Origin: an uncultured Oscillospiraceae bacterium
GTDB taxonomy: Bacteria; Bacillota; Clostridia; Oscillospirales; Acutalibacteraceae
Direction of reading: 5' to 3'
NCBI GenBank assembly: GCA_949292425.1
Contig: CASEZK010000058.1
Span: 5-64,004 of the forward strand
DNA length: 64,000 nucleotides
In this document: positions 4,261-58,521 of the stretch, one piece after another
Layout of the letters: every line of letters starts with the position of its first letter
How positions within the stretch are numbered: the stretch's first letter is position 1
The notes under the pieces: model-generated
Told to the model about the DNA's origin: nothing
Database searches by the model: none
What the model saw: only the letters and a program-made list of their open reading frames with translations
Made by a program: the position numbers and the translations under genes

Positions 4261-4334
4261 AATAGGTCACGAAACACCCGGAAAGGGTGCAGAGTAAAAG
4301 CACGCCCGCCAACTACAAGAAGGAGGCGATTTTA

Positions 4335-4646
4335 GTGGCAGTCAAGGAAAAGATTAGGATAAGACTTAAGGGTTATGACCATCAGTTGTTAGACCAATCT
4401 GCGCTTAGAATAGTGGAAACTGCTAAACGCACAGGGGCAAAGGTTTCAGGGCCGGTGCCGCTACCTACTGAAAAGCAAGTTGTTACGATACTTCGTGCTG
4501 TTCATAAGTACAAAGATAGCCGTGAACAATTTGAAACAAGAACCCACAAAAGACTTATCGATGTCTTGAAGCCGTCAAATAAGACCGTAGAGGCTCTTAT
4601 GGCGCTGGAGCTCCCTGCTGGAGTTGACATAGAGATCAAACTTTAA
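4335..4646 (+). CDS. rpsJ: 30S ribosomal protein S10
   Basis: GTG start 8 nt after the aggagg RBS. Sequence contains [11 protein letters not shown]...[13 protein letters not shown]. Confidence 0.95.
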
Positions 4647-4712
4647 GTCAATAATTGGCAGACGGGGTCAAGTTGAAGAGATTCAACCAATAACTACCTA
4701 GGAGGGAAATGT

Positions 4713-5390
4713 ATGCAAAAAGCAATAGTCGGAAAGAAAATTGGGATGACTCAAATTTTCGACGAAAAGGGCAATGTAATTCCTGTTACAGTTGTTGAAG
4801 CAGGTCCATGCGTTGTTTCACAAAAGAAAACTATAGAAAACGATGGTTACAATTCAATTCAAATGGGATTTGGCGACATAAAACTTAAATTTAAAAAGGG
4901 CACGAGATCTAGCAAATTTGACGAAAAGCCAAGCAATGTAACTTTACCTATGCAAGGGCATTTCGCAAAAGCTGATGTGGCACCGAAGAAAGTTTTACGT
5001 GAGTTCCGTTTCGACGATATCGATCAATATAATGTTGGAGATATTATTAAGGCGGATGTGTTTGCAGAAGGGGATAAGATTGATGTAACAGGTACTAGCA
5101 AAGGCAAAGGGTACCAGGGTGTTATTAAACGCTGGAATGCACACAGATTAAAGGAAACTCATGGTTCAGGTCCGGTTGTACGTCATGCAGGTTCCAATGG
5201 TGCTTGTTCAGATCCATCAAGAGTGTTTAAGGGCAAAAAGTTACCGGGACATATGGGTGCAGAAAGAATCACAGTGCAGAATTTACGAGTAGTAAAAGTA
5301 GATAGTGAAAATAACTTGATTGCTATAAAAGGAGCTATACCAGGTCCAAATGGCGGAACAGTTATAATTCGCGAGAGCGTAAAGGCTTAA
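4713..5390 (+). CDS. rplC: 50S ribosomal protein L3
   Basis: Sequence [14 protein letters not shown]...[12 protein letters not shown], in the expected operon position. Confidence 0.95.
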
Positions 5391-5406
5391 GGAAGGAGGA
5401 AGAAAT

Positions 5407-6030
5407 ATGCCAAATGTACAAGTGCTGAATATGGCAGGACAAAAAGTTGGCGAAATGAGTTTAAATGACAATGTATTCGGCATAAAACCCAACAAGACTG
5501 TTATGCATGAAATGGTTGTAAATTATCTTGCAAATCAACGCCAAGGCACACAATCTGCATTGACTAGAGCAGAAGTTTCAGGCGGTGGTAAAAAACCATG
5601 GAGGCAAAAAGGAACAGGTCATGCAAGACAAGGCTCGATTCGTTCGCCACAATGGAGACATGGTGGTGTAGTGTTTGCTCCGAAGCCTAGAGATTACGGC
5701 TTTGATGTAAATAAAAAAGAAAGACGTCTTGCTATGAAGTCAGCCCTTTCGAGCAAAGTTTTAGACAGCAATATGATAGTTCTGGACAAGATAGCTGTAG
5801 ATGACTTTAAGACTAAGAAAGTAGTAGAGATGCTAAAAGCTATAGGGGCGAGCAAAAAAGTTCTATTAGTTCTTACGGAAAAAGACGAGAAAGTGATAAA
5901 TTCGGCTAGAAACATAGAAGGTGTTAAAACCGCTGGTGTGAATACATTGAATGTTTACGACATATTAAATTGCACAAGCCTTGTAGTAGCGCAAGAGGCA
6001 GTAAATAAAATCGAGGAGGTGTATGCTTAA
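5407..6030 (+). CDS. rplD: 50S ribosomal protein L4
   Basis: Sequence [25 protein letters not shown]. Confidence 0.95.
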
Positions 6031-6320
6031 TGGCAGCGCAAGATATAATTATCCGTCCGATAATCACGGAAAAGAGCATGAATGGCATAGCCATGAAAAA
6101 GTACACTTTTGAGGTTGCACCACAAGCTGGTAAGATTGAAATAAGAAAAGCTGTAGAGGAATTGTTTGGTGTTAAAGTTGAAAGAGTAAATACGATGCAT
6201 GTTAGAGGAAAACTAAGACGCCAAGGCAGAAATCAAGGTTACACTAAAGCGTGGAAAAAAGCGATAGTTAAGCTTACAGATGATAGTAAAGGCATAGAGT
6301 TTTTTGAAAGTATGAACTAA
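6030..6320 (+). CDS. rplW: 50S ribosomal protein L23
   Basis: Sequence [10 protein letters not shown]...[13 protein letters not shown]-type overlap with rplD. Confidence 0.95.
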
Positions 6321-6532
6321 AGGGTGTATTTAAATGACTAAAAATATGATTCTAAAAGTAATAAACAAAATAGACAATGTAAAAATTTCTCCATTTTATA
6401 GGTTGGCCTGCAGCGACACTTTTGTTTGTAACTTCAATTTTTTTGATTAATTTTGTAGACATAAATATTGTTTTGGACAGCTGTCTTGGTTAAATTGTTA
6501 ACGCTTAATAAAAGCTGGGGAAATTTGCCAGA

Positions 6533-6745
6533 GTGATGACAATTATGTTCTTTATAATAGGAGTCCAAATTGATAGATTGTTGTCGCATAATTATTATTA
6601 TCAAGATGGATATTTTTACAACTATAGCAATGTGTCATGGTTTGATGTGTTTATGGTTATTACGTTTTTAATTTATTTTTTGAGTAAGTACGTTTATAAA
6701 GCACTTAATAAAGCAGCTAAGGAGAGTCAATCTCCGCAAAGCTAA
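6533..6745 (+). CDS. hypothetical small Tyr-rich membrane peptide inside the S10 operon (uncertain)
   Basis: 70-aa ORF in the atypical 445-bp rplW-rplB spacer, with two hydrophobic segments. No clear RBS. Confidence 0.25.
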
Positions 6746-6764
6746 AATAAGGAGTGAAATTAAA

Positions 6765-7598
6765 TTGGCAATTAAAAGTTATAAACCAACAACTCCATCG
6801 AGAAGAAACATGTCAGTTGTTGATTATTCAGGACTTTCTAAAGTGGCACCTGAAAAAAGTTTGTTAGAGCCTCTTAACAAAAAGTCAGGAAGAAATAGCT
6901 ACGGGAGAATTACAGTGCGCCATAAAGGTGGCGGAAACAGAAGGAAATATCGCGTGATAGACTTTAAACGTCAAAAGTTCGATATGCCTGCTAAAGTTTT
7001 GACTTTAGAATATGACCCTAACCGTTCAGCACATATTGCGCTTATCCAATATGAAGACGGAGAGAAGAGCTACATTACAGCACCAAACGGTCTAAAGATA
7101 GGAGACACTGTAGTAGCAGGCCCTAATGCAGATATAAGACCAGGTAACGCATTGCCCCTCACCAATATTCCAGTAGGTACGTTCATACACAACGTTGAGA
7201 TGTATCCGGGAAAGGGAGCACAGTTGGCAAGATCTGCAGGAAACATGGCTCAGCTTATGGCTAAAGAAGGCAAATTGGCACTTTTAAGATTACCCTCAGG
7301 TGAGTTGAGAAATGTTCCGATAGAATGTATGGCAACTGTTGGAGAAGTAGGAAACTCAGACCACGAAAACGTTAAGATCGGTAAAGCTGGTAGAAAACGT
7401 CATATGGGGATAAGACCAACAGTTCGTGGATCGGTTATGAACCCGTGCGATCACCCACATGGTGGTGGTGAAGGCAAAAGTCCTATCGGACGTTCAGGTC
7501 CTGTTACACCTTGGGGTAAACCTACTCTTGGTTATAAGACTAGATCTAAACATAATAAGTCTGATAAGTTCATTGTTAAACGTAGAAACGGTAAATAG
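6765..7598 (+). CDS. rplB: 50S ribosomal protein L2
   Basis: TTG start after the aaggag RBS. Sequence contains [16 protein letters not shown]...[13 protein letters not shown]. Confidence 0.95.
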
Positions 7599-29803: not shown

Positions 29804-29808
29804 CTTAT

Positions 29809-30150
29809 GTGACTAAATCTATAAGCCGAGTTCTGTTGAAAGCAGTCATCTATCTTGGCCAAATGTCACCATTCAGCTCAGTGCCACCTTTAAGACATAC
29901 CGAGCAGGCACATAAATGTCTTATTTGCGGTGTTGCTCCAGATAGGGTTTACATAGCCACACAGTCTCCTATGCGCTGGTGAGCTCTTACCTCGCCTTTC
30001 CATCCTTACCAAAGTTGGCGGTATATTTCTGTTGCACTATCCCTAGGGTTGCCCCCGGCGGCCGTTAGCCGTTATCTTGCTCTGTGGAGCTCGGACTTTC
30101 CTCGCGTACACCCTTTCGGTAAAGTACCCGCGACTGCTCAATTTACTCAC
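29809..30150 (-). ncRNA. rnpB: RNase P RNA (ends approximate)
   Basis: The minus strand contains the universally conserved GAGGAAAGTCCGAGCTC and ACAGAACTCGGCTTA blocks. A P1-like pairing gtgagtaaat/atttagtcac closes the structure. The stretch is locally GC-rich in an AT-rich genome. Confidence 0.88.
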
Positions 30151-30227: not shown

Positions 30228-30422
30228 CTAACTACGTGGTCTTTTTTCGTTAAAATTGTGCTTTATAGAGTTGATTTCATGAAAGCTTTGTGTGTTTTTA
30301 TGAGTACCAAAATGTTGGGTGTTATCTATACTTGTATAATTATAAGATAACCCTCCAGAAATTCCACCTAAACTGTCTTCTATCAATTCTATTATATCAT
30401 TCTTTTTATTATCCTTTTCCAT
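30228..30422 (-). CDS. 64-aa peptide with double-glycine leader (…IIELIEDSLGGISGG) and Asn/Thr/Ser/His-rich, Cys-free core
   Basis: RBS aaaggag 9 nt upstream. The gene lies 27 nt downstream of the GNAT gene on the same strand. Confidence 0.55.
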   Translation of the reverse strand: MEKDNKKNDIIELIEDSLGGISGGLSYNYTSIDNTQHFGTHKNTQSFHEINSIKHNFNEKRPRS

Positions 30423-30449: not shown

Positions 30450-31025
30450 TCAATTTAAAATTTTATAATATAGAGCAGCATCACATTTACAAGGGCCGTT
30501 GCACTCTACGCAAGTATAGTTTTTGTCGTTTTCCCAAATTCTATGTACAGTTTTAAAGAAGGTAAATCCTGACTTTAAAAGTACATTTTCAACAGGAACA
30601 TAACTGCCTCTTTTCCAAGCGGGACACCATGCTGCTTTATACCCTATTTTTTGAGCTTTGTCCAAGGTTCTGTTAAACAAATTATATCCTAGTCCCATTT
30701 TTTCACAATCTTTTCTAAGTGCCATGGATTTAGTGTGGCATATGGAACTGTCGGACCCTGTTACAGAAATTAGTTCTTGCTTAGGTATTTTAAAGTCCTT
30801 TTCAGCACTATTCATATTATCTTCAAAGAATAAACAGTAGCCCAGTACATTGCCGTTTTCATCCAAGGCTAATGTGCACATTTCGTTATCACAATTCACA
30901 TGATCTAAAATTTTTTTTCTATCTATATAATTTTCTCCAAATCTGCCAACGGCGACATTTATCATATCGTCCAAATACTCGTTTACAAAATTTGAATAGG
31001 TAACATTTTTTACCTGAGTCATCAT
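30450..31025 (-). CDS. GNAT-family N-acetyltransferase with C-terminal Cys cluster (CVECNGPCKC)
   Basis: GNAT-like beta4/motif A region (ALDENGNVLGYCLF ... RKDCEKMGLGYNLF). An RBS is present. Confidence 0.65.
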   Translation of the reverse strand: MMTQVKNVTYSNFVNEYLDDMINVAVGRFGENYIDRKKILDHVNCDNEMCTLALDENGNVLGYCLFFEDNMNSAEKDFKIPKQELISVTGSDSSICHTKSMALRKDCEKMGLGYNLFNRTLDKAQKIGYKAAWCPAWKRGSYVPVENVLLKSGFTFFKTVHRIWENDKNYTCVECNGPCKCDAALYYKILN

Positions 31026-31094: not shown

Positions 31095-34000
31095 TTAATT
31101 TTTTGCTTGTAGTACTCCGTCTACAAGTTCATATTCATCTTTTATACTTTGAGCTACACGTATTCTAGCAGCTGTTCCATCAGATTTTTTAACTGTTAAA
31201 CTTTCTAAAGGTGTTGTTCCCCACTGCAAAAATCTTTTCGTCTGATTTTGTAAATACTCTATTACTTCTTCATTTACCTCAAACAACTCATCTGCGTCAC
31301 TCTTTAAAATTACGGTTATATTACCACGACCGTCTGAAGAAGTTTTTTCTATCATTGATTTTTGCCTGTTTAATACTTCTTCTCCAACAGAAAATGTTAC
31401 TTTACCGTTGCAGAAGTCATCGGGGGATAGACTCAAATAAATTTTTATTTCTTCATTGCCTCCCGCATTCAGCTCTTTTTCATCATATCCAACTTGTACA
31501 CATTTAATGTCAATATTTATCATGTTTTCAATATAATTTAGTAGATTAATATTTTCCTTTTTGAGATATAAGCTATCGCTGTCAGGGTTCATCGTAATAT
31601 AAACTGTCTGTTCCTCTTTATCAAATCTTATTTTTTTAATACCGTTTTCTTGTAAAGTCTTACTACTTAGTTCGTTTCTTCCTAGACGCGTTGCAACATT
31701 TTTATAACTGGAACTATAATCTTCAATGGTAAATCTATCTTTAAGGTCATCTGCAATTGTAGGTATTACACTACCATTGTTTACATGAATAGCTTTTACA
31801 TCGTCTGGCTTTTCATATCCAGTCTGTTTTGCTAAATATTCCAGCAAAGCTTTGTTGATTGTTAAGGTGTTATTTCCATCTTTTAAAGTCACATAAATCC
31901 ATTGACCAGTATAACTACTTGTAGCTTTTGCTATTTTACCAATTCCTATAGCGGCAACTTCATCTACTCCGAACTCGTCCATGATTTTAGCAGTATTTGG
32001 ATCTATGCCATTATTCACAAGTTCGGCGACATTTTTATTTACTTTGTGATCATGCATAGTTTGAGCAATTTCCTTACCTACATTTTCGTCAAGCATAATT
32101 TCAGCGACAGGTCTTGATACTGAAGCTTTTCCCATAATTTTTTGTAATTTTAGATCTCTTATTTCTTGCTGAGTACGGTGCAGCAAGGTATTTCTATCTT
32201 CAGCTTCTTTAAAAATTTCACTTAAATTTTCGTCCAATTCTGGTCTTATATCACAATTATTAAACCTTATAGACTCAACTTTATCTAAACTTCTAAAGCC
32301 TGCCTCTACAGCGAGAGATTTTAAGCTATTTTCTTCAATAGTAACGTTTTTACTTTTGTCAATCAAAGTTAACTCTAAGCAATTTTTTACCTTTTTTACT
32401 CCTTGGACATTAGTTTGCCTAAATATTTTTTCTATTTCTGTAAGTTGACGAATGGTATTATTATAGGAAAATAAATATCCTCTTCCTTTTACAGTTTCAG
32501 GTTCTGCAAAAAGTTCTTTTAAATCATCATCTAATGTTGGCTTAATGTTACCGTTGTTGACTAGTATATATTGAACTTCATTTATACTGCTAAAGCCTGC
32601 TTTATTTATAAAAGTATTTAAGTTGTCTGATGTAATAGTAATGTTGTTGTGCCCATCAGGCAAAGTCAACATTAGCCATCCTCTATCATTTTTAGCTGTT
32701 ACATCATTTACGTTTAGTGTAGCGTTGTCTTCTTTATTAATGGTTTCTTCATGCCTATCGGTATCAACACCACCCATGGGTTGAGTTTGGTCATCTTCTA
32801 AAGGCCGAACAACATCTTTATCTTGGACATTTTCTGCATGCTGATTTTGATCGATGGTTTCTTCACGGCTATCAGCATTAACACTAGCCATTGGAGCGTG
32901 CTCATCTTCTCGCTGTTGTTGCAATTCAAGCTTTAATCTTTCTATCTCAGTATTTCTTTCTTCTAAGGCTCTTGTAAGTCCTTCATTTTTTTCTTTAACG
33001 GAGTTTAACATTTCATTCGTTTGTCTTAATTCCTGCATAAGTTGTCCGAGGTTATTTTGACCATCTACTGCTTGACCGCTTAGTGCTTCCATAGCTCTGT
33101 TTTGACGATCTAATTGTTCGCGCAGTTCACCTATTTGCCGTACATACTCATCTTTCGCATTCGTTACTTGATTTACTTGATCTGCCAGATATTGATTGTT
33201 ACCTCGAAGTTGTTGGATGGCCTCAAGTTGGCCTTGGGTTGTTGCGTTTATTTCTCTTATTTGAGACTCTAAATTTTCAAGTTGCTCTGTTAACGCTAGA
33301 TTTTGTTCGTTGAGACGCTCGATTGTTTCTTTTCCAAGTTCATTTTCTTTAGTTGCAGAATCTAATTGTTGCAGGTTTTGATCTAATTGTTGCTGTAGAC
33401 TATCGATTGATCTTGTCAGCTCTTGCTTTTCCTTTTCAAATTGTTGTTGCAATTCTGCAATGGTTTGCTTTGCATCTCGATTATTGAGGTCACTGTTTAC
33501 TTGCGCAGTTTCTTTAGGTTCTTCTACGTCATCAGTATGGACTCCTTTCACAACTTTATCTTCTCTAAGTGTGATAGTAGGTTGCTGAGTGGAATTCTGT
33601 TCATGACTAACTTTACCCTGCTGCTGTGTGGAAACTTCAAGCGAAGGAGTTTCTTTTTCAACTGAGTTATTGTTAAAAAGATTTTTAAGAAGATTTTCGT
33701 CATCAATATCAACTGTTTTGCGCGAGGGACGAAAATTTGTGTCTGCGCTGAATGAAGGCACACTTTCGTTTAGATCACTATCGCTAAGCCCGCTAGTGCC
33801 TACATAACTATCCTCGTCTTTAGCGTAAGTGCTATTTTCACCACTTTCGTAAGCATTATCTTCAGCATTGTCATCCTCATCTTCATTGTAGAGGGTAGCC
33901 TCTTGTTGTGAGCTAACCGTAGGAGAAGAAAATTGAGACATTTTCATAGCCGCACCTGTGGCGAAAGAGATGCCTAATAATCCTAACATACCAACAGCAG

Positions 34001-34271
34001 CTATCTTAGGAGACATTGCTCCGCCACTTACATTCAACAATTCGTCGTCAGACAATGTAGATTTTAAATCTTTCAAGTACGATTCAAGTTCATCCTTAGA
34101 AAAATCGTAGTGATATTTTTTACTTATATCAACTATTTTTTGTAATAAATCGTTAGAATTTTTTATTTGATCTGATTTTTCCAAATCATTTTGTAATTTT
34201 TTAAATTCTGCTTTTAACTCGTCATTTTCATGTACCTTAGCGTAAAATTTGACGACATTTTCTTTTGACAT
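31095..34271 (-). CDS. 1058-aa protein: Nif11-like GG leader + TM helix + acidic linker + long coiled coil + repeated ~58-aa modules
   Basis: ATG after the aggagg RBS. Sequence MSKENVVKFYAKVHENDELKAEFKKL...LSDDELLNVSGG, then AMSPKIAAVGMLGLLGISFATGAAM. A Q/E/L heptad-rich region of about 190 aa follows, then 3 clear and 2 degenerate repeats. Confidence 0.8.
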   Translation of the reverse strand: MSKENVVKFYAKVHENDELKAEFKKLQNDLEKSDQIKNSNDLLQKIVDISKKYHYDFSKDELESYLKDLKSTLSDDELLNVSGGAMSPKIAAVGMLGLLGISFATGAAMKMSQFSSPTVSSQQEATLYNEDEDDNAEDNAYESGENSTYAKDEDSYVGTSGLSDSDLNESVPSFSADTNFRPSRKTVDIDDENLLKNLFNNNSVEKETPSLEVSTQQQGKVSHEQNSTQQPTITLREDKVVKGVHTDDVEEPKETAQVNSDLNNRDAKQTIAELQQQFEKEKQELTRSIDSLQQQLDQNLQQLDSATKENELGKETIERLNEQNLALTEQLENLESQIREINATTQGQLEAIQQLRGNNQYLADQVNQVTNAKDEYVRQIGELREQLDRQNRAMEALSGQAVDGQNNLGQLMQELRQTNEMLNSVKEKNEGLTRALEERNTEIERLKLELQQQREDEHAPMASVNADSREETIDQNQHAENVQDKDVVRPLEDDQTQPMGGVDTDRHEETINKEDNATLNVNDVTAKNDRGWLMLTLPDGHNNITITSDNLNTFINKAGFSSINEVQYILVNNGNIKPTLDDDLKELFAEPETVKGRGYLFSYNNTIRQLTEIEKIFRQTNVQGVKKVKNCLELTLIDKSKNVTIEENSLKSLAVEAGFRSLDKVESIRFNNCDIRPELDENLSEIFKEAEDRNTLLHRTQQEIRDLKLQKIMGKASVSRPVAEIMLDENVGKEIAQTMHDHKVNKNVAELVNNGIDPNTAKIMDEFGVDEVAAIGIGKIAKATSSYTGQWIYVTLKDGNNTLTINKALLEYLAKQTGYEKPDDVKAIHVNNGSVIPTIADDLKDRFTIEDYSSSYKNVATRLGRNELSSKTLQENGIKKIRFDKEEQTVYITMNPDSDSLYLKKENINLLNYIENMINIDIKCVQVGYDEKELNAGGNEEIKIYLSLSPDDFCNGKVTFSVGEEVLNRQKSMIEKTSSDGRGNITVILKSDADELFEVNEEVIEYLQNQTKRFLQWGTTPLESLTVKKSDGTAARIRVAQSIKDEYELVDGVLQAKN

Positions 34272-34384
34272 AATAATTCCTCCTAATTTTTTTATTTTCA
34301 ATTTTGATGTAAAAGCTCAGCCTCCTCTCTTTAAGTAATAATAAATTATGAAATAAGCTGATACTATTATGCCATATTTATAAT

Positions 34385-34418
34385 ACAACCAAAATAATTA
34401 TATCACAACCAAAATAAT
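34385..34418. repeat. tandem direct repeat ACAACCAAAATAAT x2 (20-bp period) in the promoter region of the large gene
   Basis: Exact 14-mers at 34385-34398 and 34405-34418. The proximal copy abuts a TGgCATAAT-like extended -10 on the minus strand. Confidence 0.5.
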
Positions 34419-34663
34419 ATGTAAACTATTTAAAACAAAGATTTTTCATTTTTCTAAATAAATTCTTAAAAACCTTGATGCCAATACGAAAAACTTATGT
34501 TTTTATGTTGATGAACCGATATGTAAGATGTTTTTTGCACATTTTTATTTAAAAACAAAAAATCCCCAATAAAATTGAGGACTTTTTGAGTAAATTAAAA
34601 ATAAATTATTAATTAATGAAAAAATAAGCAAGAAAATGTTAGTATATATGAGACTTCATAGCC

Positions 34664-36554: not shown

Positions 36555-36630
36555 GCTGGTGTAGCTCAGTTGGTAGAGCAGCTGATTTGTAATCAGCAGG
36601 TCGGGGGTTCAAGTCCGTCCACCAGCTCCA
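36555..36630 (+). tRNA. tRNA-Thr (anticodon UGU), CCA encoded
   Basis: Manual cloverleaf: acceptor GCTGGTG/CACCAGC, D arm GCTC/GAGC, anticodon arm GCTGA-TTTGTAA-TCAGC. The T arm GGGGG-TTCAAGT-CCGTC has one G.G mismatch. Confidence 0.85.
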
Positions 36631-36692: not shown

Positions 36693-36777
36693 GGGAGATT
36701 TCCAGAGCGGCCAAATGGGGCAGACTGTAAATCTGTTGTCTATGACTTCGGTGGTTCGAATCCACCATCTCCCACCA
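36693..36777 (+). tRNA. tRNA-Tyr (anticodon GUA), long variable arm, CCA encoded
   Basis: Acceptor GGGAGAT/ATCTCCC, anticodon loop CTGTAAA, T arm GGTGG-TTCGAAT-CCACC. Confidence 0.88.
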
Positions 36778-41746: not shown

Positions 41747-43105
41747 ATGAAAAAATTATTAGCTGCAATAATGTGCATTTGTTTAATTACATCAAGCATA
41801 GGCATTTCAGTATCTGCTGCAAACGAAAGTGATGATAACCATACAGATGAAACGCTTATCTCATATTTACTTAAACCTATCCCATATTTACTTAAACCAG
41901 TCTTTTGGGCAGGGTCGCTTATTGATAGCGCTGCTAAGGCAACAGCTTATTCAATTGGGATGGCTTCTCCAATTTTGATAATGATTCTAGTAAACAAATT
42001 TAGTGAACTATATAAGACGCATCAAGCAAGGGCAAACTGTGGAACTATAGACCCTGTTAGAGATCCTATTTTAGTCATAAATAAGTTAGACAGTTACCTG
42101 AAAAATGTAAAAGGGCAAGAAAAAGCCAAGGAAAAACTAAGAAATTTTGTTATAAATTTAGTAGATGAACGTAACAAAAAACTTTCTGGGATTTCTAAAA
42201 AGAAGGGAGCTAATTTAATTTATTTTGTAGGCCCGTCAGGCGTAGGAAAATCTTTATCTGCTGAGATTTTAACCAAAGTTATTACAGGGAATAATTCTCT
42301 ACCATATATAATAGAACCTTCTGATATTGATAAGGGATCTAAAAAGTCTAGTGTTGTAGAACAATTATTTGGAATGAGAGCTAAAAAAATAAATAATTCG
42401 GAATACTACGAATTGTCACCACTTTTGCTGCAACTAAAAGCTACCCCTAATATGGTAGTCATAATAAATGAATATGACAAATTACAAACTAAAGATCTAG
42501 ATGAAAAACTAAGGACTATCTTAGACCAGGGCTATGTAAAAGTAAACGGAGAAACCATAGATTGTTCACACGCAACCTTTATAATTACTTCAAACGAAAG
42601 TTTAGGTTCTATCTCGAAAGGTGCACATGAAGACGACGGTACAGGTTCTCGTACGTATGTAGAACACGACAAAGCATTCTTGAATAGAATCAAGTTTATA
42701 AATTTTGAAAACTTAAGTTTTGAACAATATAAGGAAATAGCACAAGCACCTTGTGCTGATTTACAAAAAAATTACCTAGCTTCATATAAGATATTCGTCG
42801 ATTTTAATGATGCCATAGAAAGAATAGCAGATTTAACTGAAAAGCTGAATCAGGGAGCTAGGCCAATTCAAGACTTTGTAGATAAATTAAATGAAAAGAT
42901 ATTAACCGAAGTTATTCTTAAAAATTCGAAAGACAGAAATTATGAAGGAAAAACGTACAAGGTTTCTTATGATGAGTCAAGAGAAGATTTTGTTGTAAAT
43001 GAAATAAAAAAGCCAGTTAGTGAGTCAACACAAACAGGTGAAAGTGTTGGTGCAAATGCAAATGAAGTAAATAGCAATACAATAAGCTTGCAGCAAACTG
43101 CATAA
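41747..43105 (+). CDS. signal-peptide/TM-anchored standalone AAA+ ATPase resembling ClpA/ClpB NBD2 (torsin-like architecture)
   Basis: Signal peptide MKKLLAAIMCICLITSSIGISVSA|AN, then a TM segment AYSIGMASPILIMILVNKF. Contains VKGQEKAK, Walker A GPSGVGKS, Walker B-like VVIINEYDK, sensor-1 FIITSN and FLNRI. Confidence 0.7.
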   Translation: MKKLLAAIMCICLITSSIGISVSAANESDDNHTDETLISYLLKPIPYLLKPVFWAGSLIDSAAKATAYSIGMASPILIMILVNKFSELYKTHQARANCGTIDPVRDPILVINKLDSYLKNVKGQEKAKEKLRNFVINLVDERNKKLSGISKKKGANLIYFVGPSGVGKSLSAEILTKVITGNNSLPYIIEPSDIDKGSKKSSVVEQLFGMRAKKINNSEYYELSPLLLQLKATPNMVVIINEYDKLQTKDLDEKLRTILDQGYVKVNGETIDCSHATFIITSNESLGSISKGAHEDDGTGSRTYVEHDKAFLNRIKFINFENLSFEQYKEIAQAPCADLQKNYLASYKIFVDFNDAIERIADLTEKLNQGARPIQDFVDKLNEKILTEVILKNSKDRNYEGKTYKVSYDESREDFVVNEIKKPVSESTQTGESVGANANEVNSNTISLQQTA

Positions 43106-43106
43106 T

Positions 43107-43145
43107 AAAAAAGCCAGTCATCTTTTGAAGATGATTGGTTTTTTG
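43107..43145. terminator. bidirectional intrinsic terminator between convergent genes
   Basis: ccagtcatc...gatgattgg stem flanked by an A-run and a T-run. Confidence 0.65.
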
Positions 43146-43149
43146 CTTA

Positions 43150-44142
43150 TTACTCTTCATCAAATTTTTTTATGTACTTTTTAGCTAATGGGTTCGATGA
43201 AATTGCTTTTTCAATTTGCCTATTAGAAACATGAGTATATATCTCAGTAGTGCCCAAGTTAGAATGTCCCAGTATATCCTTTAACACTCTTATATCTACA
43301 TTCCCATGCTGATACATAAGTGTAGCAGCGGTGTGTCTTAGCTTATGAACTGAATAACCCTCATTTTTCAAATTTGCTTTATTTAGGTATTTATATACCA
43401 AAGCTTGTACAGTCTTTGGACTAATTCTTTTTTTTTGTTTACTTATAAACAAAGCATTCCTATCAGCAATTCCATTCATTGGTCTAACTTTTAAATAATT
43501 TTTTATAGCACTATTGCATGCTTCATTTAAGTAAATTATTCTTTCTTTATTACCTTTTCCTGTTAATCTTAAAGTGTTGTCGGATCTTATATCGCTTAAG
43601 TTCATATTTACAAGCTCAGACAAACGCATACCGCAGTTTAAAAAAAGAGTTAATATGCAAAAATCTCTCTCTCTGTAAGTTCCAGTTACACTATTTAACA
43701 ACTCTAAGCTTTCTTCTAATGTTAAAAATTTGGGTAGTGAAGACTTCTTTTTAGGGGTATCGATTTCTTTACATGGGTTTTCATCTATTTGGTGAGTTTT
43801 ATTTGACAAAAAATTGAAAAAGGATCTTAAACATGAAATTTTTCTTGCTTTAGTGGACGAGCTATTTTTTCTTTCATAAGTAAGGTAATTAAAGTAATCG
43901 TAAATATCCGTAAGCGTAATACTTTTTACCATTTGGATATCTATATCATCAATTTTGATATCTTTAAAATTTTCAGAATTTTTGGCCTCAGAATATTTAA
44001 ACTTTTTAATATATCTGAAAAAAGTACGAAGATCTAAGTAATACTCGCTTACTGTCTTAGGTGATTTTCCTTTAATATTCAACATATAATTTAAAAAATC
44101 TTTTATAACTGGTGAGGTAATGCTAAAGTTAGGATTTTTCAT
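43150..44142 (-). CDS. tyrosine recombinase, XerC/XerD-like (start uncertain: 44142, 44184 or 44274)
   Basis: Contains HKLRHTAATLMYQHG...LGHSNLGTTEIYTHV and an N-terminal SAM-like core-binding motif (SPKTVSEYYLDLRTFFRY). Confidence 0.85.
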   Translation of the reverse strand: MKNPNFSITSPVIKDFLNYMLNIKGKSPKTVSEYYLDLRTFFRYIKKFKYSEAKNSENFKDIKIDDIDIQMVKSITLTDIYDYFNYLTYERKNSSSTKARKISCLRSFFNFLSNKTHQIDENPCKEIDTPKKKSSLPKFLTLEESLELLNSVTGTYRERDFCILTLFLNCGMRLSELVNMNLSDIRSDNTLRLTGKGNKERIIYLNEACNSAIKNYLKVRPMNGIADRNALFISKQKKRISPKTVQALVYKYLNKANLKNEGYSVHKLRHTAATLMYQHGNVDIRVLKDILGHSNLGTTEIYTHVSNRQIEKAISSNPLAKKYIKKFDEE

Positions 44143-44470
44143 TTTTATGAACCTCGCTGTTTCTATAAAATTTTCTAAGAACATTGTAACACTTTTAACT
44201 TCCAGTAAACAAGTATGATGTAGAGTATAGGTAGTACCACATAATATGCGAAAAGAATAGCTAAAATAATACAAATAGACTTACAAAAATAATGTTATAA
44301 GTGTAAAATCAATTAAGTCAACAGAGATTTTCTATTAAACGCAAATTATAATGTTGTACAGTTTTTGAAGCTCATTTCGCGTTCTTCTTTAACTAAAAAG
44401 TGATAAACTTAGCCACCTTTATGGCAGCTAAATGTTTTTTTCACAGGTGATTTCGTTAAATTGTCAGTAG

Positions 44471-55729: not shown

Positions 55730-55987
55730 ATGAACTTTTTATCTTTAGATAAACTTCGCCAAGGTCAAGATGCAGAAGTTGTAGCACTACTTTCTGAGGG
55801 AAACAGCAGACGTCGTAATTTGGATTTGGGGTTAGTTTCAGGAACTAAAATTAAGATGTTATTTGAAAGCCATTGTAAAAATCCAAAGGCTTATCTTATA
55901 AGAGGTGCAGTTATTGCGCTTCGAGATGAAGATGCTGACAAAATTTTAGTTAAAGTACTAAAAGAAAAGGAGATTGCTTCCTTATGA
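55730..55987 (+). CDS. feoA: FeoA-domain ferrous iron transport protein A
   Basis: L.KLRQGQDAEVV...RRRNLDLGLVSGTKI pattern. ATGA overlap with feoB. Confidence 0.85.
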   Translation: MNFLSLDKLRQGQDAEVVALLSEGNSRRRNLDLGLVSGTKIKMLFESHCKNPKAYLIRGAVIALRDEDADKILVKVLKEKEIASL

Positions 55988-58143
55988 ACGTTTTTCAAAA
56001 AATACTTTCTAATAAAAGTGAAAAAAATAAGCTGAATTTTAAGATAGATAACTTAAAAGGCGACAAGATTATAGCACTAGCAGGTAATCCAAACGTTGGG
56101 AAAAGTACAGTTTTCAACGAACTAACTGGATTAAAACAACATACTGGCAATTGGCCGGGAAAGACCGTCTCAAATGCAAGAGGGAAATATTCATATAAAG
56201 GAAAAGATTTTATTTTGGTAGATTTGCCCGGTACATATTCTCTGCTATCAAATTCCTCTGAAGAAGAAATAGCAAGAGATTACATATGTTTCGGAAATGC
56301 TGACGCTACAGTTGTGGTAGTTGACGCAACTTGTATTGAAAGAAACTTAAATTTAGTTTTGCAAATAATTGAAATAACTCAAAATGTAATTGTGTGCGTG
56401 AACATCTTAGACGAAGCCGAAAAAAAAGGAATAGTTATAGACTTAAATGAATTGTCACTACAGCTAGGAGTACCTGTCGTCGGTATGAGTGCAAGATCAA
56501 AAAAAGGCTTAGATTCTTTCATGGAAACAGTCTATGATATCGCTTATAATAAAAGAAAAACTTACAAGGTAAAACTTGAATATCAGCCAGAAGTAGAGCA
56601 GGCTTTAAAGGAGTTAGAGCCGCTGGTGTTTGAAAAAGTAAAAAACAAAATAAATGCAAGGTGGGTAAGTGTTAAGCTTTTAGATATAGATGAAAAATTA
56701 AATTACTCACTCACAGAGTTTGTAGGTTGCAATTTGCTTGAAGATAAAAAAATATCAGAAATTTTAAATTCATTTCATGAAGCTTTGCTGCAAAAAGGTA
56801 TAGAAAAAGAAAACTTGAAAGATAGATTGGTTTCCTCTGTAGTAAAAAAAGCCGAAGATGTATACAACAAAAGTGTGCACTTGAAGAACAAAAACTACAA
56901 TGAGAGAGACCGCAAAATTGATAAATTACTTACCTCTAAGCTTACAGGAATACCTATAATGATTGCACTGTTATTTTTAATTTTTTGGCTTACTATGGTG
57001 GGGGCAAATTATCCATCCGAAGTTATTGCAAATGTTTTATTTGCACTGCAAGATAAACTGACAGAACTTTTTTCATTAATCAATGCACCGGCTTGGTTGC
57101 ATGGATTGTTGATTTTAGGCCTATATAGAACAGCGGCATGGGTCGTCTCAGTTATGCTGCCGCCTATGGCCATCTTCTTCCCGCTATTTACGTTGCTTGA
57201 AGACCTCGGGTACTTGCCACGAGTAGCGTTTAATTTAGACAACTATTTTAAAAAAGCTTGTGCTCACGGAAAACAGGCTCTCACTATGTGCATGGGATTT
57301 GGCTGTAACGCTTGCGGAGTTATAGGTTGCAGAATAATCGATTCTCCGAGAGAAAAATTAATAGCAATTATTACAAATAATTTTGTGCCTTGTAACGGAA
57401 GGTTCCCGACATTAATAGCCATAATAACTATGTTTTTTACAGGTTTAGCTGCAGGCCCATACGTGTCTTTATTTTCTACATTTTTATTGACTTGCACTAT
57501 AATACTCGGTGTTTTAACAACCCTGCTTGCTTCAAAAATTTTATCAAAAACGATATTAAAAGGCATACCTTCATCATTTGCTTTGGAACTTCCACCATAT
57601 AGAAAGCCACAAATAGGGAAGGTTATAGTTAGATCAGTTTTCGATAGAACGCTATTTGTGCTTGGCAGAGCGGTAATAGTAGCAGCACCCGCCGGATTAA
57701 TTATTTGGATTATGGCAAATGTGTATGTAGGAGAGAACAGCATTCTCTTTTATTGCTATAATTTTCTGGACCCGTTTGCAAAGCTTATCGGTTTAGATGG
57801 AGTAATACTAATGGCGTTTATCTTGGGATTTCCTGCAAATGAAATAGTTATTCCGATTATAATAATGTCATACTTATGCACCGGAAGCTTGACTGACATT
57901 TCGTCATTAAGTGATTTGCATCAATTGCTTATAAACAATGGTTGGACTTGGCTAACAGCTGTGTGCACTATGCTTTTTTCGTTGATGCATTTTCCTTGTG
58001 GGACGACGTGCTTAACCATAAAAAAAGAAACCAACAGCTTTAAATGGACTATTTTATCATTTATAATACCTACGATCGCCGGCATAGTGATGTGTTTTTT
58101 GCTTACAAACTTTGTTAATATATTTAATTTATTGCAATTTTAA
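55984..58143 (+). CDS. feoB: ferrous iron transport protein B
   Basis: G-domain IALAGNPNVGKSTVFNELTG, DLPGTYSL, and a polytopic C-terminal region. Confidence 0.93.
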   Translation: MNVFQKILSNKSEKNKLNFKIDNLKGDKIIALAGNPNVGKSTVFNELTGLKQHTGNWPGKTVSNARGKYSYKGKDFILVDLPGTYSLLSNSSEEEIARDYICFGNADATVVVVDATCIERNLNLVLQIIEITQNVIVCVNILDEAEKKGIVIDLNELSLQLGVPVVGMSARSKKGLDSFMETVYDIAYNKRKTYKVKLEYQPEVEQALKELEPLVFEKVKNKINARWVSVKLLDIDEKLNYSLTEFVGCNLLEDKKISEILNSFHEALLQKGIEKENLKDRLVSSVVKKAEDVYNKSVHLKNKNYNERDRKIDKLLTSKLTGIPIMIALLFLIFWLTMVGANYPSEVIANVLFALQDKLTELFSLINAPAWLHGLLILGLYRTAAWVVSVMLPPMAIFFPLFTLLEDLGYLPRVAFNLDNYFKKACAHGKQALTMCMGFGCNACGVIGCRIIDSPREKLIAIITNNFVPCNGRFPTLIAIITMFFTGLAAGPYVSLFSTFLLTCTIILGVLTTLLASKILSKTILKGIPSSFALELPPYRKPQIGKVIVRSVFDRTLFVLGRAVIVAAPAGLIIWIMANVYVGENSILFYCYNFLDPFAKLIGLDGVILMAFILGFPANEIVIPIIIMSYLCTGSLTDISSLSDLHQLLINNGWTWLTAVCTMLFSLMHFPCGTTCLTIKKETNSFKWTILSFIIPTIAGIVMCFLLTNFVNIFNLLQF

Positions 58144-58218: not shown

Positions 58219-58521
58219 ATGAACTTACAAGAGTTTATGGACAAAAACCCAGAACTGATGAAAAAGGCGGCAGAGTGTAAAGATGTGCAAGAATTTGCGA
58301 AATTTGCAAAAGAAAATGGTGTAGAAATAAAACCAGAAGGACTAAAAGATGCATATGGATATGTGCGCTCTCACTACGGCAGTGGAGAGTTGAGTGAGGA
58401 TGCACTGTCTAGTGTAGCTGGAGGAAAGGGCGGATCTGAGTATGAAATACTTAATTCTTCAAACCTATACCAAAATGCTAAAAATAAGGATGAATATATT
58501 TATAAAAAATCCAAAAAATAA
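58219..58521 (+). CDS. Nif11-like leader peptide precursor (leader ends LSEDALSSVAGG; 31-aa Cys-free Lys/Asn/Tyr/Glu-rich core)
   Basis: RBS aaggagg. The helical leader has the ELSEDAL..VAGG motif typical of Nif11-type RiPP/bacteriocin precursors. Confidence 0.65.
   Translation: MNLQEFMDKNPELMKKAAECKDVQEFAKFAKENGVEIKPEGLKDAYGYVRSHYGSGELSEDALSSVAGGKGGSEYEILNSSNLYQNAKNKDEYIYKKSKK

Follow-up and report, generated by a model that had tools for sequence, protein, structure and literature searches.

By what route might a protein of more than 1000 residues leave the cell if it begins with the kind of leader that serves small exported peptides? The question is raised by a single open reading frame (ORF) at 31095..34271 (− strand) of the window, the whole 64,000-nt stretch analyzed here from contig CASEZK010000058.1 of an uncultured Oscillospiraceae bacterium. 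Double-glycine (GG) leaders together with C39 peptidase/ATP-binding cassette (ABC) exporters are textbook machinery for small peptides (bacteriocins, pheromones, and RiPPs, peptides of ribosomal origin that are modified after translation), and from both structures and experiments, GG-leader exporters seem limited to cargos of ~100 residues. We observe the domain layout of the encoded protein, the recurrence of its N-terminal arrangement in many large proteins, and the three-gene operon to which it belongs. Based on sequence, genomic context and predicted structure only, our best reading, to which we assign a probability of about 0.45, is that a C39 peptidase encoded in trans would remove the leader, and that a hydrophobic helix directly behind it would then drive a fibrillar surface protein through Sec or anchor it.

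Counted from the ATG at 34271, the ORF encodes 1058 aa plus a stop codon, and the protein starts with MSKENVV. A ribosome-binding site (AGGAGG, 34279..34284, − strand) is positioned 7 nt 5′ of this ATG. Farther upstream, a promoter-like site found as a consensus match only (TTTACA, 17 nt, TG-extended TATAAT; 34397..34425, − strand) is likely the start of a three-gene operon, with the terminator-like hairpin of the upstream gene (34556-34588) just ahead of it. An alternative TTG start in the ORF list, at 34301, has no AGGAGG-type site. From the placement of the ribosome-binding site and promoter, the product is therefore the 1058-aa protein, with the same start as in an earlier note on this DNA that was made from the sequence alone. 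The whole coding sequence reads as a pre-pro-protein in which a Nif11/GG leader is followed by a hydrophobic segment, then a linker, a coiled coil and a series of modules.

The earlier note had described the N-terminus as a Nif11-type GG leader, and both a Pfam match and a canonical GG site show that it is real. The leader spans residues 1-84 (34020..34271, − strand). The search with Nif11 hidden Markov models (HMMs) proposed in that note gave a significant match of Pfam Nif11 (PF07862) to residues 1-62 (26.9 bits, gathering cut-off 23.8, E = 6e-6), and the NCBIfam model TIGR03798 (Nif11-like leader peptide family RiPP precursor) matches residues 19-84 (E = 2.7e-5, model positions 6-68 of 68). 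A profile of the protein's family also matches PDB entry 9zn4, ‘Nif11 domain-containing protein’ (E = 3e-4), the sole solved one. The leader ends in LSDDELLNVSGG (residues 73-84, L73-S-D-D-E77-L78-L-N-V81-S-G83-G84), which supplies the canonical motif L-12, E-8, L-7, V-4, G-2, G-1 and a predicted cut site after G84 (codons 34020-34025). The GG is kept in the homologs of the protein, and in an alignment of 20 diverse N-termini of the wider class described below (alignment A3) it is invariant, with S-3 and L-12 conserved at 90% or more. By Pfam match and motif, the N-terminus thus qualifies as a Nif11-type GG leader. The protein departs from the RiPP-precursor family on two defining features, the TIGR03798 cut-off and the short core: 974 residues follow the GG, far beyond the size range of known substrates. 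The earlier remark that such a leader is atypical on a protein of >1000 aa is borne out by this cargo, set against cores of tens of residues.

Directly behind the GG, residues 85-114 (33930..34019, − strand) read AMSPK-IAAVGMLGLLGISFATGAAM-KMSQF, with a basic n-region and a G/A/S-rich hydrophobic core. The n-region, AMSPK, carries the basic Lys89 and sits at an N-terminus only once the GG has been cleaved; 20 hydrophobic residues and a small-residue tail then follow. The stretch at residues 90-109 reaches a Kyte-Doolittle 19-mer mean of 1.85 and is the only one above 1.6 in the entire protein. The transmembrane (TM) helix predicted by the earlier note therefore stands as a single hydrophobic stretch, with a layout closer to that of a Sec signal peptide or anchor; in this protein and in nearly all large members of the class, the segment after the GG resembles, in its n-h-c layout, a Sec-type signal peptide or signal anchor. 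The class IIb bacteriocin model lactobin A/cerein 7B (TIGR03949) matches residues 71-108 below threshold (15.5 bits, cut-off 21.5, E = 0.011). Lipoprotein or sortase anchoring is rejected, as the sequence contains neither a lipobox Cys after the helix nor an LPXTG at the C-terminus.

This segment is also the most conserved part of the protein. Measured against P0012, a homolog from an 858-aa clade, identity is 83% over residues 85-114, compared with 63% in the leader (1-84) and 29-67% elsewhere: 38% in the linker (115-265), 29% in the coiled coil (266-470, with 41/205 positions aligned), 33% in an inter-module segment (594-626), 38-67% in modules 1-3, 39% in a helical insert (692-786) and 51-64% in the C-terminal units (853-1058).

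The earlier note suggested surveying homologs for leaders fused to large cargos. Such fusions recur, and the protein is no isolated oddity. Using a profile of the protein's family, from which the coiled-coil columns had dropped out because most homologs lack the coiled coil, we searched 1.84 billion representative proteins. The search yielded 115 matches, nearly all confined to profile positions 1 to ~120-160, that is, to the leader, GG and helix. The GG site could be located in 111 of these, and 61/111 carry 150 to 1274 residues beyond it, so that the same start occurs in at least 61 representative proteins with at least 150 residues after the GG. We refer to these as large-cargo members and to the remaining 50 as shorter ones. 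By total length, 59/114 matches have at least 250 aa and 41 at least 450 aa, the longest having 1310-1355 aa. The largest cargo was seen on a metagenome contig (L017, 9464-19912), where a Nif11-GG-helix protein of at least 3303 aa, open at the contig end, comes after a 166-aa Nif11-leader protein with SAG, not SGG, at the cut site. A word-indexed homolog search with a 20-sequence N-terminal alignment recovered short proteins only and missed the long members; a narrower N-terminal alignment yielded five metagenome loci. One 2064-aa match (P0043) has no leader and nine stretches matching profile positions ~380-443. It is probably a compositional false positive, since a dedicated module HMM did not recover it, and the eukaryote-type Pfam families G-patch, TFCD_C and Ras, each found once in the scanned set, probably come from it.

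Within this class, the GG is followed by 2-6 residues, usually including one Lys/Arg (xSPK, xSPR, xSAR, IDIKK), and then by 15-22 G/A/S-rich hydrophobic residues, behind which a small-x-small arrangement is often found (SSSA|M, EASA|M, ASA|M, SYA|MDPP, AFA|MDPEP). A hydrophobic 15-mer (Kyte-Doolittle mean of at least 1.6, starting within ~22 residues of the GG) is present in 57/61 large-cargo members and 22/50 shorter ones, a comparison drawn within one and the same hit set (Fisher p = 8e-9); the four large-cargo exceptions reach 1.38-1.53. The n-region has a net charge of +1 or +2 in 47/61 large-cargo members, and a strict [AS]xA lies behind the hydrophobic core in 37/61. Ahead of the GG, the mean charge of the last 12 residues is about −2.7 to −2.9 in large-cargo and shorter members alike. 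Among the short members are some with ordinary Cys-rich or bacteriocin-like cores that lack a hydrophobic segment.

The cargos themselves are diverse. PF07862 matches 30/43 long class members, whose large cargos include the extracellular-type Pfam domains LRR_5 of BspA type (6/43) and a transglutaminase-like core (2/43). The module HMM finds the module of our protein in other class members, among them a leucine-rich repeat (LRR) protein. Members often occur in tandem, with near-identical N-termini and different cargos: L010/L018 have four in a row, L020 has three and L021 two. None of the members whose source names were looked up carries an informative name; these genes are currently annotated as hypothetical or, wrongly, as ‘RiPP precursor’.

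Homologs that extend over the cargo are rare, with only 13 clusters among 5.8 billion proteins, all from metagenomes or metagenome-assembled genomes (one is ‘uncultured Ruminococcaceae bacterium UMGS1224’). The leader, GG and hydrophobic segment are kept in every homolog with an aligned N-terminus (8/9 in alignment A1); in the ninth, P0005, the gene is split, and a separate, overlapping 147-aa ORF carries the leader. The coiled coil is a lineage-specific insertion that is missing from the 858-aa homologs.

The earlier note passed over two conserved operon partners. On the same strand and without an intervening terminator, the large gene is followed after 69 nt by a gene for a 191-aa GNAT acetyltransferase (30450..31025, − strand), assigned by PF00583 and an AlphaFold model, and after a further 27 nt by the last gene of the operon, encoding a 64-aa small GG peptide (30228..30422, − strand) with a conserved GG leader and a predicted cut between ..DIIELIEDSLGGISGG and LSYNYTSIDNTQHF... 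The three-gene unit is retained in two differing chromosomal contexts: in close relatives it is flanked by putative ridA and aroQ genes (assigned from Pfam domains) and the RNase P RNA gene, and in the other clade it lies in a different housekeeping context. Given these housekeeping contexts in both clades, a phage or mobile-element origin of the large gene is rejected. The GNAT family is tiny (14 clusters), and wherever the upstream side is visible and complete, the GNAT gene directly follows one to three genes for Nif11-GG-helix proteins: in the window, L002/L004/L015, L007/L008, L020 (Eubacteriales bacterium SKADARSKE-1; members of 177, 196 and 2053 aa) and L021/L022 (640 and 719 aa). In L011 it lies behind a 1355-aa member, the cargo of which shows no sequence relationship to that of our protein, with a further ORF of at least 1319 aa upstream whose N-terminus is beyond the contig end. 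The small GG peptide then follows the GNAT in all loci except L020.

The GNAT matches PF00583 with 22.7 bits (cut-off 20.7) and has 97% identity between clades in which the large proteins share 45%. Its AlphaFold model (pLDDT 86.6) has a standard GNAT fold with Foldseek E-values down to 8.5e-11, and the solved matches of lowest rmsd are the protein N-terminal acetyltransferases Naa30/NatC (2.3-3.0 Å), Ard1 and RimI. Its invariant C-terminal C-x2-C-x-G-P-C-x-C has no counterpart among the Foldseek matches. We guess that this enzyme probably modifies one or both leader-bearing products of the operon, and the tight linkage and high GNAT conservation suggest that the leader guides the modification of whole proteins, not of peptides. 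In Nif11/NHLP clusters, GNATs rank third among maturases by frequency, and those characterized acylate Lys or Orn near the core start before leader removal (PMC8784127). As no conserved Lys follows the GG in the class, acylation of this selidamide type is not supported. A polymorphic-toxin reading of the locus is likewise unsupported, the downstream gene being an extremely conserved GNAT and not a co-varying immunity gene.

Behind the hydrophobic segment, the cargo comprises a linker, a coiled coil and small folded units. The acidic low-complexity linker of the earlier note is recovered by composition and alignment as an S/D/E/N-rich stretch (residues 115-265; 33477..33929, − strand), with a net charge of −21 over residues 113-265. 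Within otherwise poorly conserved surroundings, a linker motif, D-x-N-L-L-K-x-L-F ... E-x-P-S-L-x-V-x-x-Q-Q (residues 191-217; 33621-33701), is invariant across homologs, which suggests a binding or processing site. The Q/E/L-rich coiled coil, estimated earlier at ~190 aa, measures 205 aa (residues 266-470; 32862..33476, − strand). It shows an unbroken heptad (3.5-residue) periodicity (z = 23 against shuffles) of which no other segment shows any, and SMC/Rad50 arm-like NCBIfam matches fall on it.

The earlier note counted five copies of a ~58-aa module, of which three copies of ~65 aa are unambiguous by sequence (hhalign P 1e-19 to 1e-21, HMM E 1e-28 to 1e-33). These are alpha/beta modules, supported by HMM, hhalign and AlphaFold, at residues 529-593 (32493..32687), 627-691 (32199..32393) and 787-852 (31716..31913, all − strand). 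Between the second and third lie six short helices (residues 692-786; 31914..32198, − strand) with a repeated A-x-x-[IL]-M-x-x-x-x-V-like pattern, seen in the AlphaFold model and the alignment. The other two, a divergent fourth unit (residues ~878-945; 31437..31640, − strand) and a divergent fifth with the conserved C-terminus (residues ~974-1056; 31104..31352, − strand), share just the predicted strand/helix order with the clear modules (hhalign P only 0.004-0.2). An AlphaFold model of the C-terminal half (mean pLDDT 86) contains five small beta-beta-alpha-beta-(alpha)-beta units and the six-helix insert. Searches of Pfam, NCBIfam, PHROGs and PDB sequence profiles gave no significant match that would indicate a function for the modules, and Foldseek found nothing at E < 1e-3 in PDB or BFVD; a weak resemblance to FliF, PrgH/PrgK and GerM-type small alpha/beta domains (E 0.01-0.3) is not relied on.

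As the earlier note stated, no cognate exporter is encoded in the window. Every ORF of at least 500 aa is otherwise assigned, there are no peptidases among the unassigned ORFs of 137-332 aa, and neither a C39 peptidase nor an ABC exporter was found in the 64 kb. A 719-aa ORF (55984-58143), considered as a peptidase-containing ABC transporter (PCAT) beside a second Nif11 peptide, proved to be FeoB. No large-cargo locus examined contained an ABC- or C39-like ORF within ~10 kb.

Four further ORFs in the window had been listed as having GG leaders, and two of them are well supported: the small peptide of the operon (30228-30422), with its conserved GG leader, and a 100-aa Nif11 peptide precursor (58219-58521, + strand; ...LSSVAGG, Pfam Nif11 26.2 bits) with a predicted cut between ...LSEDALSSVAGG and KGGSEYEILNSSNLYQNAKNKDEYIYKKSKK. 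The latter lies directly behind feoA/feoB (55730-58143), with no maturase or transporter adjoining. The other two are plausible candidates. They are adjacent paralogs on the − strand, neither with a Pfam match, encoding 74 aa (1182-1406; leader-like start MKKLSLANQEKIAGG, ..EKIAGG) and 85 aa (1431-1688; leader-like start MKKLNSTELTKVNGK, ..TKVNGK), so that one has GK, not GG; their common core is [FW][YH]IPFYKE..D.EF...GI.HIH. Overall, what the earlier note saw stands for the leader, the TM-like stretch, the linker, the coiled coil and the absence of an exporter, and only in part for the count of five modules. Its interpretation finds support in leader type, cargo size and the lack of a nearby exporter; the export route and the repeat count call for revision.

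How, then, might the protein be exported? The presence in the window of Nif11 and GG peptides without an adjacent transporter implies trans-acting GG processing in this genome. A PCAT C39 peptidase is known to cut Nif11 leaders of gut Clostridia, reading the last ~13 leader residues and tolerating sequence beyond the cut (PMC6363468). In our best reading, a cytoplasmic C39-type (PCAT-family) peptidase encoded elsewhere, presumably the one serving the ordinary Nif11 and GG peptides scattered in the window, would read the last ~13 residues of the leader and cut after Gly83-Gly84. This cut would exchange an acidic flank (about −3) for a free amino terminus and Lys89, creating the layout of a Sec signal or anchor, and Sec/signal recognition particle (SRP) would move the remaining protein across the membrane. 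The acidic linker could then span the wall, with the 205-aa coiled coil as a stalk and the alpha/beta modules displayed or released. We lean toward the hydrophobic helix being retained as an anchor or partner-binding helix, not discarded, because it is unusually conserved, which argues for a sequence-specific job.

Several points weigh against this reading. The TIGR03798 score of the leader (24.3 bits) is below the trusted cut-off (32.3), and no C39 peptidase or PCAT was found for this genome within the 64-kb window searched. The candidate signal-peptidase site is only fair (TGA|A or GAA|M, with V at −1 in one homolog), 83% conservation of the hydrophobic segment is unusual for a disposable signal peptide, and we know of no reason for a Sec substrate to need a removable Nif11 leader. 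In addition, the query profile contained the helix, so that the hit set is enriched for helix-bearing members; matches aligned over the leader alone (e.g., P0051, P0060, P0113, P0098) still carry the helix.

Export of the entire protein by a C39-peptidase ABC exporter was implied in the earlier note. In this account, a PCAT encoded elsewhere would cut at the GG and thread the whole unfolded cargo of ~974 residues out, in the manner of Gram-negative type I export of giant adhesins, and the helix would stem from a class II bacteriocin-like core that later became a membrane anchor. In its favor are the canonical GG leader, the helix so highly conserved as if fitted to a transporter, the weak TIGR03949 match at residues 71-108, and a range that extends unbroken from 3-60-aa cargos, with many RiPP- or bacteriocin-like ones among them, to giant ones with the same kind of leader. 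In Gram-negative type I systems, very large proteins are exported by ABC transporters with C39-like domains (PMC6959990). PCAT1, however, is an alternating-access transporter whose cavity has room for a single 66-aa cargo (PMC6959990), and export of MccV by a PCAT-type system falls sharply at 116 aa (PMC10231218), which together suggest that PCAT-type export is size-limited and count in favor of Sec export after leader removal. The Sec-like n-h-c segment, present in our protein and nearly all large members, almost always accompanies a large cargo and would be needless for a PCAT, so whole-protein export by this route is not the best-supported one; nor does a transporter gene lie beside any large-cargo locus examined. 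We consider it unlikely. We regard as decidedly unlikely that the protein is never cut and remains a type II membrane protein, with Nif11 as a permanent cytoplasmic domain, the helix as a signal anchor, the C-terminus outside, and the GG as a relic or a site of occasional regulated release. A large outside domain joined through one TM helix to some 85 residues in the cytoplasm is a common Gram-positive layout, the helix is conserved like a functional TM segment, and no peptidase gene lies nearby (in the 64-kb window, or within ~10 kb at the other large-cargo loci). A relic would be expected to decay, yet across very divergent members the GG never varies and S-3 and L-12 are kept at 90% or more. 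The uncut N-side flank is moreover acidic (mean −2.7), a poor positive-inside fit for an N-in anchor, and between the GG and the helix some members lack any basic residue. The best-conserved residues, 85-114, could instead themselves be the product, if cuts at the GG and by signal peptidase freed a conserved hydrophobic peptide of ~24-30 residues (AMSPKIAAVGMLGLLGISFATGAA) that acts like a bacteriocin or pheromone, with the large domain as co-product or carrier. The weak class IIb bacteriocin similarity would fit, and signal-peptide-derived pheromones occur in enterococci. This would leave ~950 residues of structured, selectively maintained modules (mean pLDDT 86, C-terminal region conserved at 51-67%) unexplained; the bacteriocin match is under threshold, no immunity-like gene was identified at the locus, and we find the idea very improbable.

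Should the leader be cleaved, a recurrent class of leader-bearing proteins of 150 to more than 3300 residues would mean that C39 peptidases also take part in the maturation of Sec-dependent surface proteins, or else that very large cargo can be moved by some PCATs; either outcome would change the annotation of these genes. More tentatively, the class may reflect a hitherto unrecognized export logic for giant surface proteins of gut and rumen Clostridia, in which the leader would mask the Sec signal until its removal by a C39 peptidase (a two-key gate) or recruit a PCAT for cargos 10-30 times larger than any known, with a dedicated GNAT resembling N-terminal acetyltransferases and the small GG peptide acting in the same pathway. 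This would amount to a new class of variable surface proteins, some of BspA-type LRR architecture, in uncultured gut and rumen Clostridia, and would offer a portable handle for protein display or secretion.

The window as a whole is core chromosome of a low-GC Clostridia-type organism. It encodes a ribosomal-protein operon with an S10-Clostridia leader, two tRNAs, enolase, GAPDH, TyrRS, ProRS, a UvrD/PcrA-type helicase, FeoAB and a SpoIID-domain protein. A class A RNase P RNA gene (29806-30149, − strand, 262 bits) is the immediate downstream neighbor of the small GG peptide gene and has a promoter-like site of its own (30185-30157) as well as a terminator-like hairpin (29806-29772); the ORFs listed across it are spurious. 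A tyrosine recombinase of the phage integrase family (43150-44274, − strand) adjoins an AAA ATPase (41747-43105, + strand). Several small unassigned ORFs are found at 39.8-41.4 kb, and tRNA genes (36555-36627, 36693-36774) lie ~3-7 kb away. The region at 41747-44274 may be a small integrated element. It is missing from L007, the syntenic homolog locus, in which little separates the helicase gene from the PGM gene. In the loci of the 858/902-aa clade, an array of at least seven paralogous genes lies downstream of the cassette (L002, 13478-18976; L004 and L015, 13723-20298, − strand), encoding proteins of 150-300 aa with ordinary N-terminal signal peptides (MRRFLKKLSLLCL...) and no Pfam match. 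Upstream of the cassette in the same three loci (4313-7160, + strand) is a 948-aa secreted protein with an ordinary signal peptide and no Pfam match, unrelated to the Nif11-leader protein by the HMMs used.

In the literature, including Haft 2010 (PMC2887384), we found no mention of large proteins with a Nif11 leader or of a GG leader ahead of a signal-peptide-like segment. Because neither the literature nor the names of class members provide a description, we rate the protein, on its sequence, context and predicted structure, as the first-noticed member of a recurrent, previously undescribed class with a known type of leader.

The closest known systems are the Nif11 leader peptide precursors (N11P; ProcA, LahA1-9 of Lachnospiraceae C6A11). 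These share with our protein a helical leader of ~80 residues that ends in L-S-x-x-E-L-x-x-V-x-G-G, hypervariable sequence behind the conserved leader, several paralogs per genome that are often far from a transporter, and frequent GNAT companions (PMC2887384, PMC6363468, PMC8784127). Their cores, however, have tens of residues, compared with 974 aa here and more than 3300 aa in the class. Unlike these cores, the cargo of our protein opens with a signal-peptide-like segment and is a folded multi-domain protein with a coiled coil, and unlike N11P clusters, the locus has no lanthionine synthetase, cyclodehydratase or other classic maturase nearby. The substrates of PCATs (class II bacteriocins, microcin V, CtA of PCAT1) resemble it in a GG leader with hydrophobic residues at −4, −7 and −12 and in the hydrophobic, glycine-rich sequence behind the cut. 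Their known cargos are shorter than ~100 aa, with the drop at 116 aa (PMC10231218) and the 66-aa cavity (PMC6959990), whereas ours is 974 aa, and our locus has no transporter, accessory or immunity gene.

RiPP clusters of the selidamide type resemble the locus in a GNAT gene directly beside genes for Nif11-leader proteins; their GNATs work in the cytoplasm while the leader is still attached, at residues close to the core start (PMC8784127). They differ in that, in our class, K and R alternate after the GG and some members have neither, leaving no conserved Lys/Orn acceptor; unlike selidamide clusters, the cassette loci contain no LanM or arginase genes. The GNAT of this locus is further set apart from selidamide GNATs by its unique Cys-rich tail and by closest folds that are protein N-terminal acetyltransferases. 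An extra conserved N-terminal element ahead of the hydrophobic export signal of a large surface protein is also known from the extended signal peptide region of autotransporters and from YSIRK-type signal peptides of Gram-positive surface proteins. These extensions have 20-25 residues, are part of the signal peptide and are removed by signal peptidase, whereas the extension described here is a folded RiPP-type leader of 84 residues that has a different protease site of its own.

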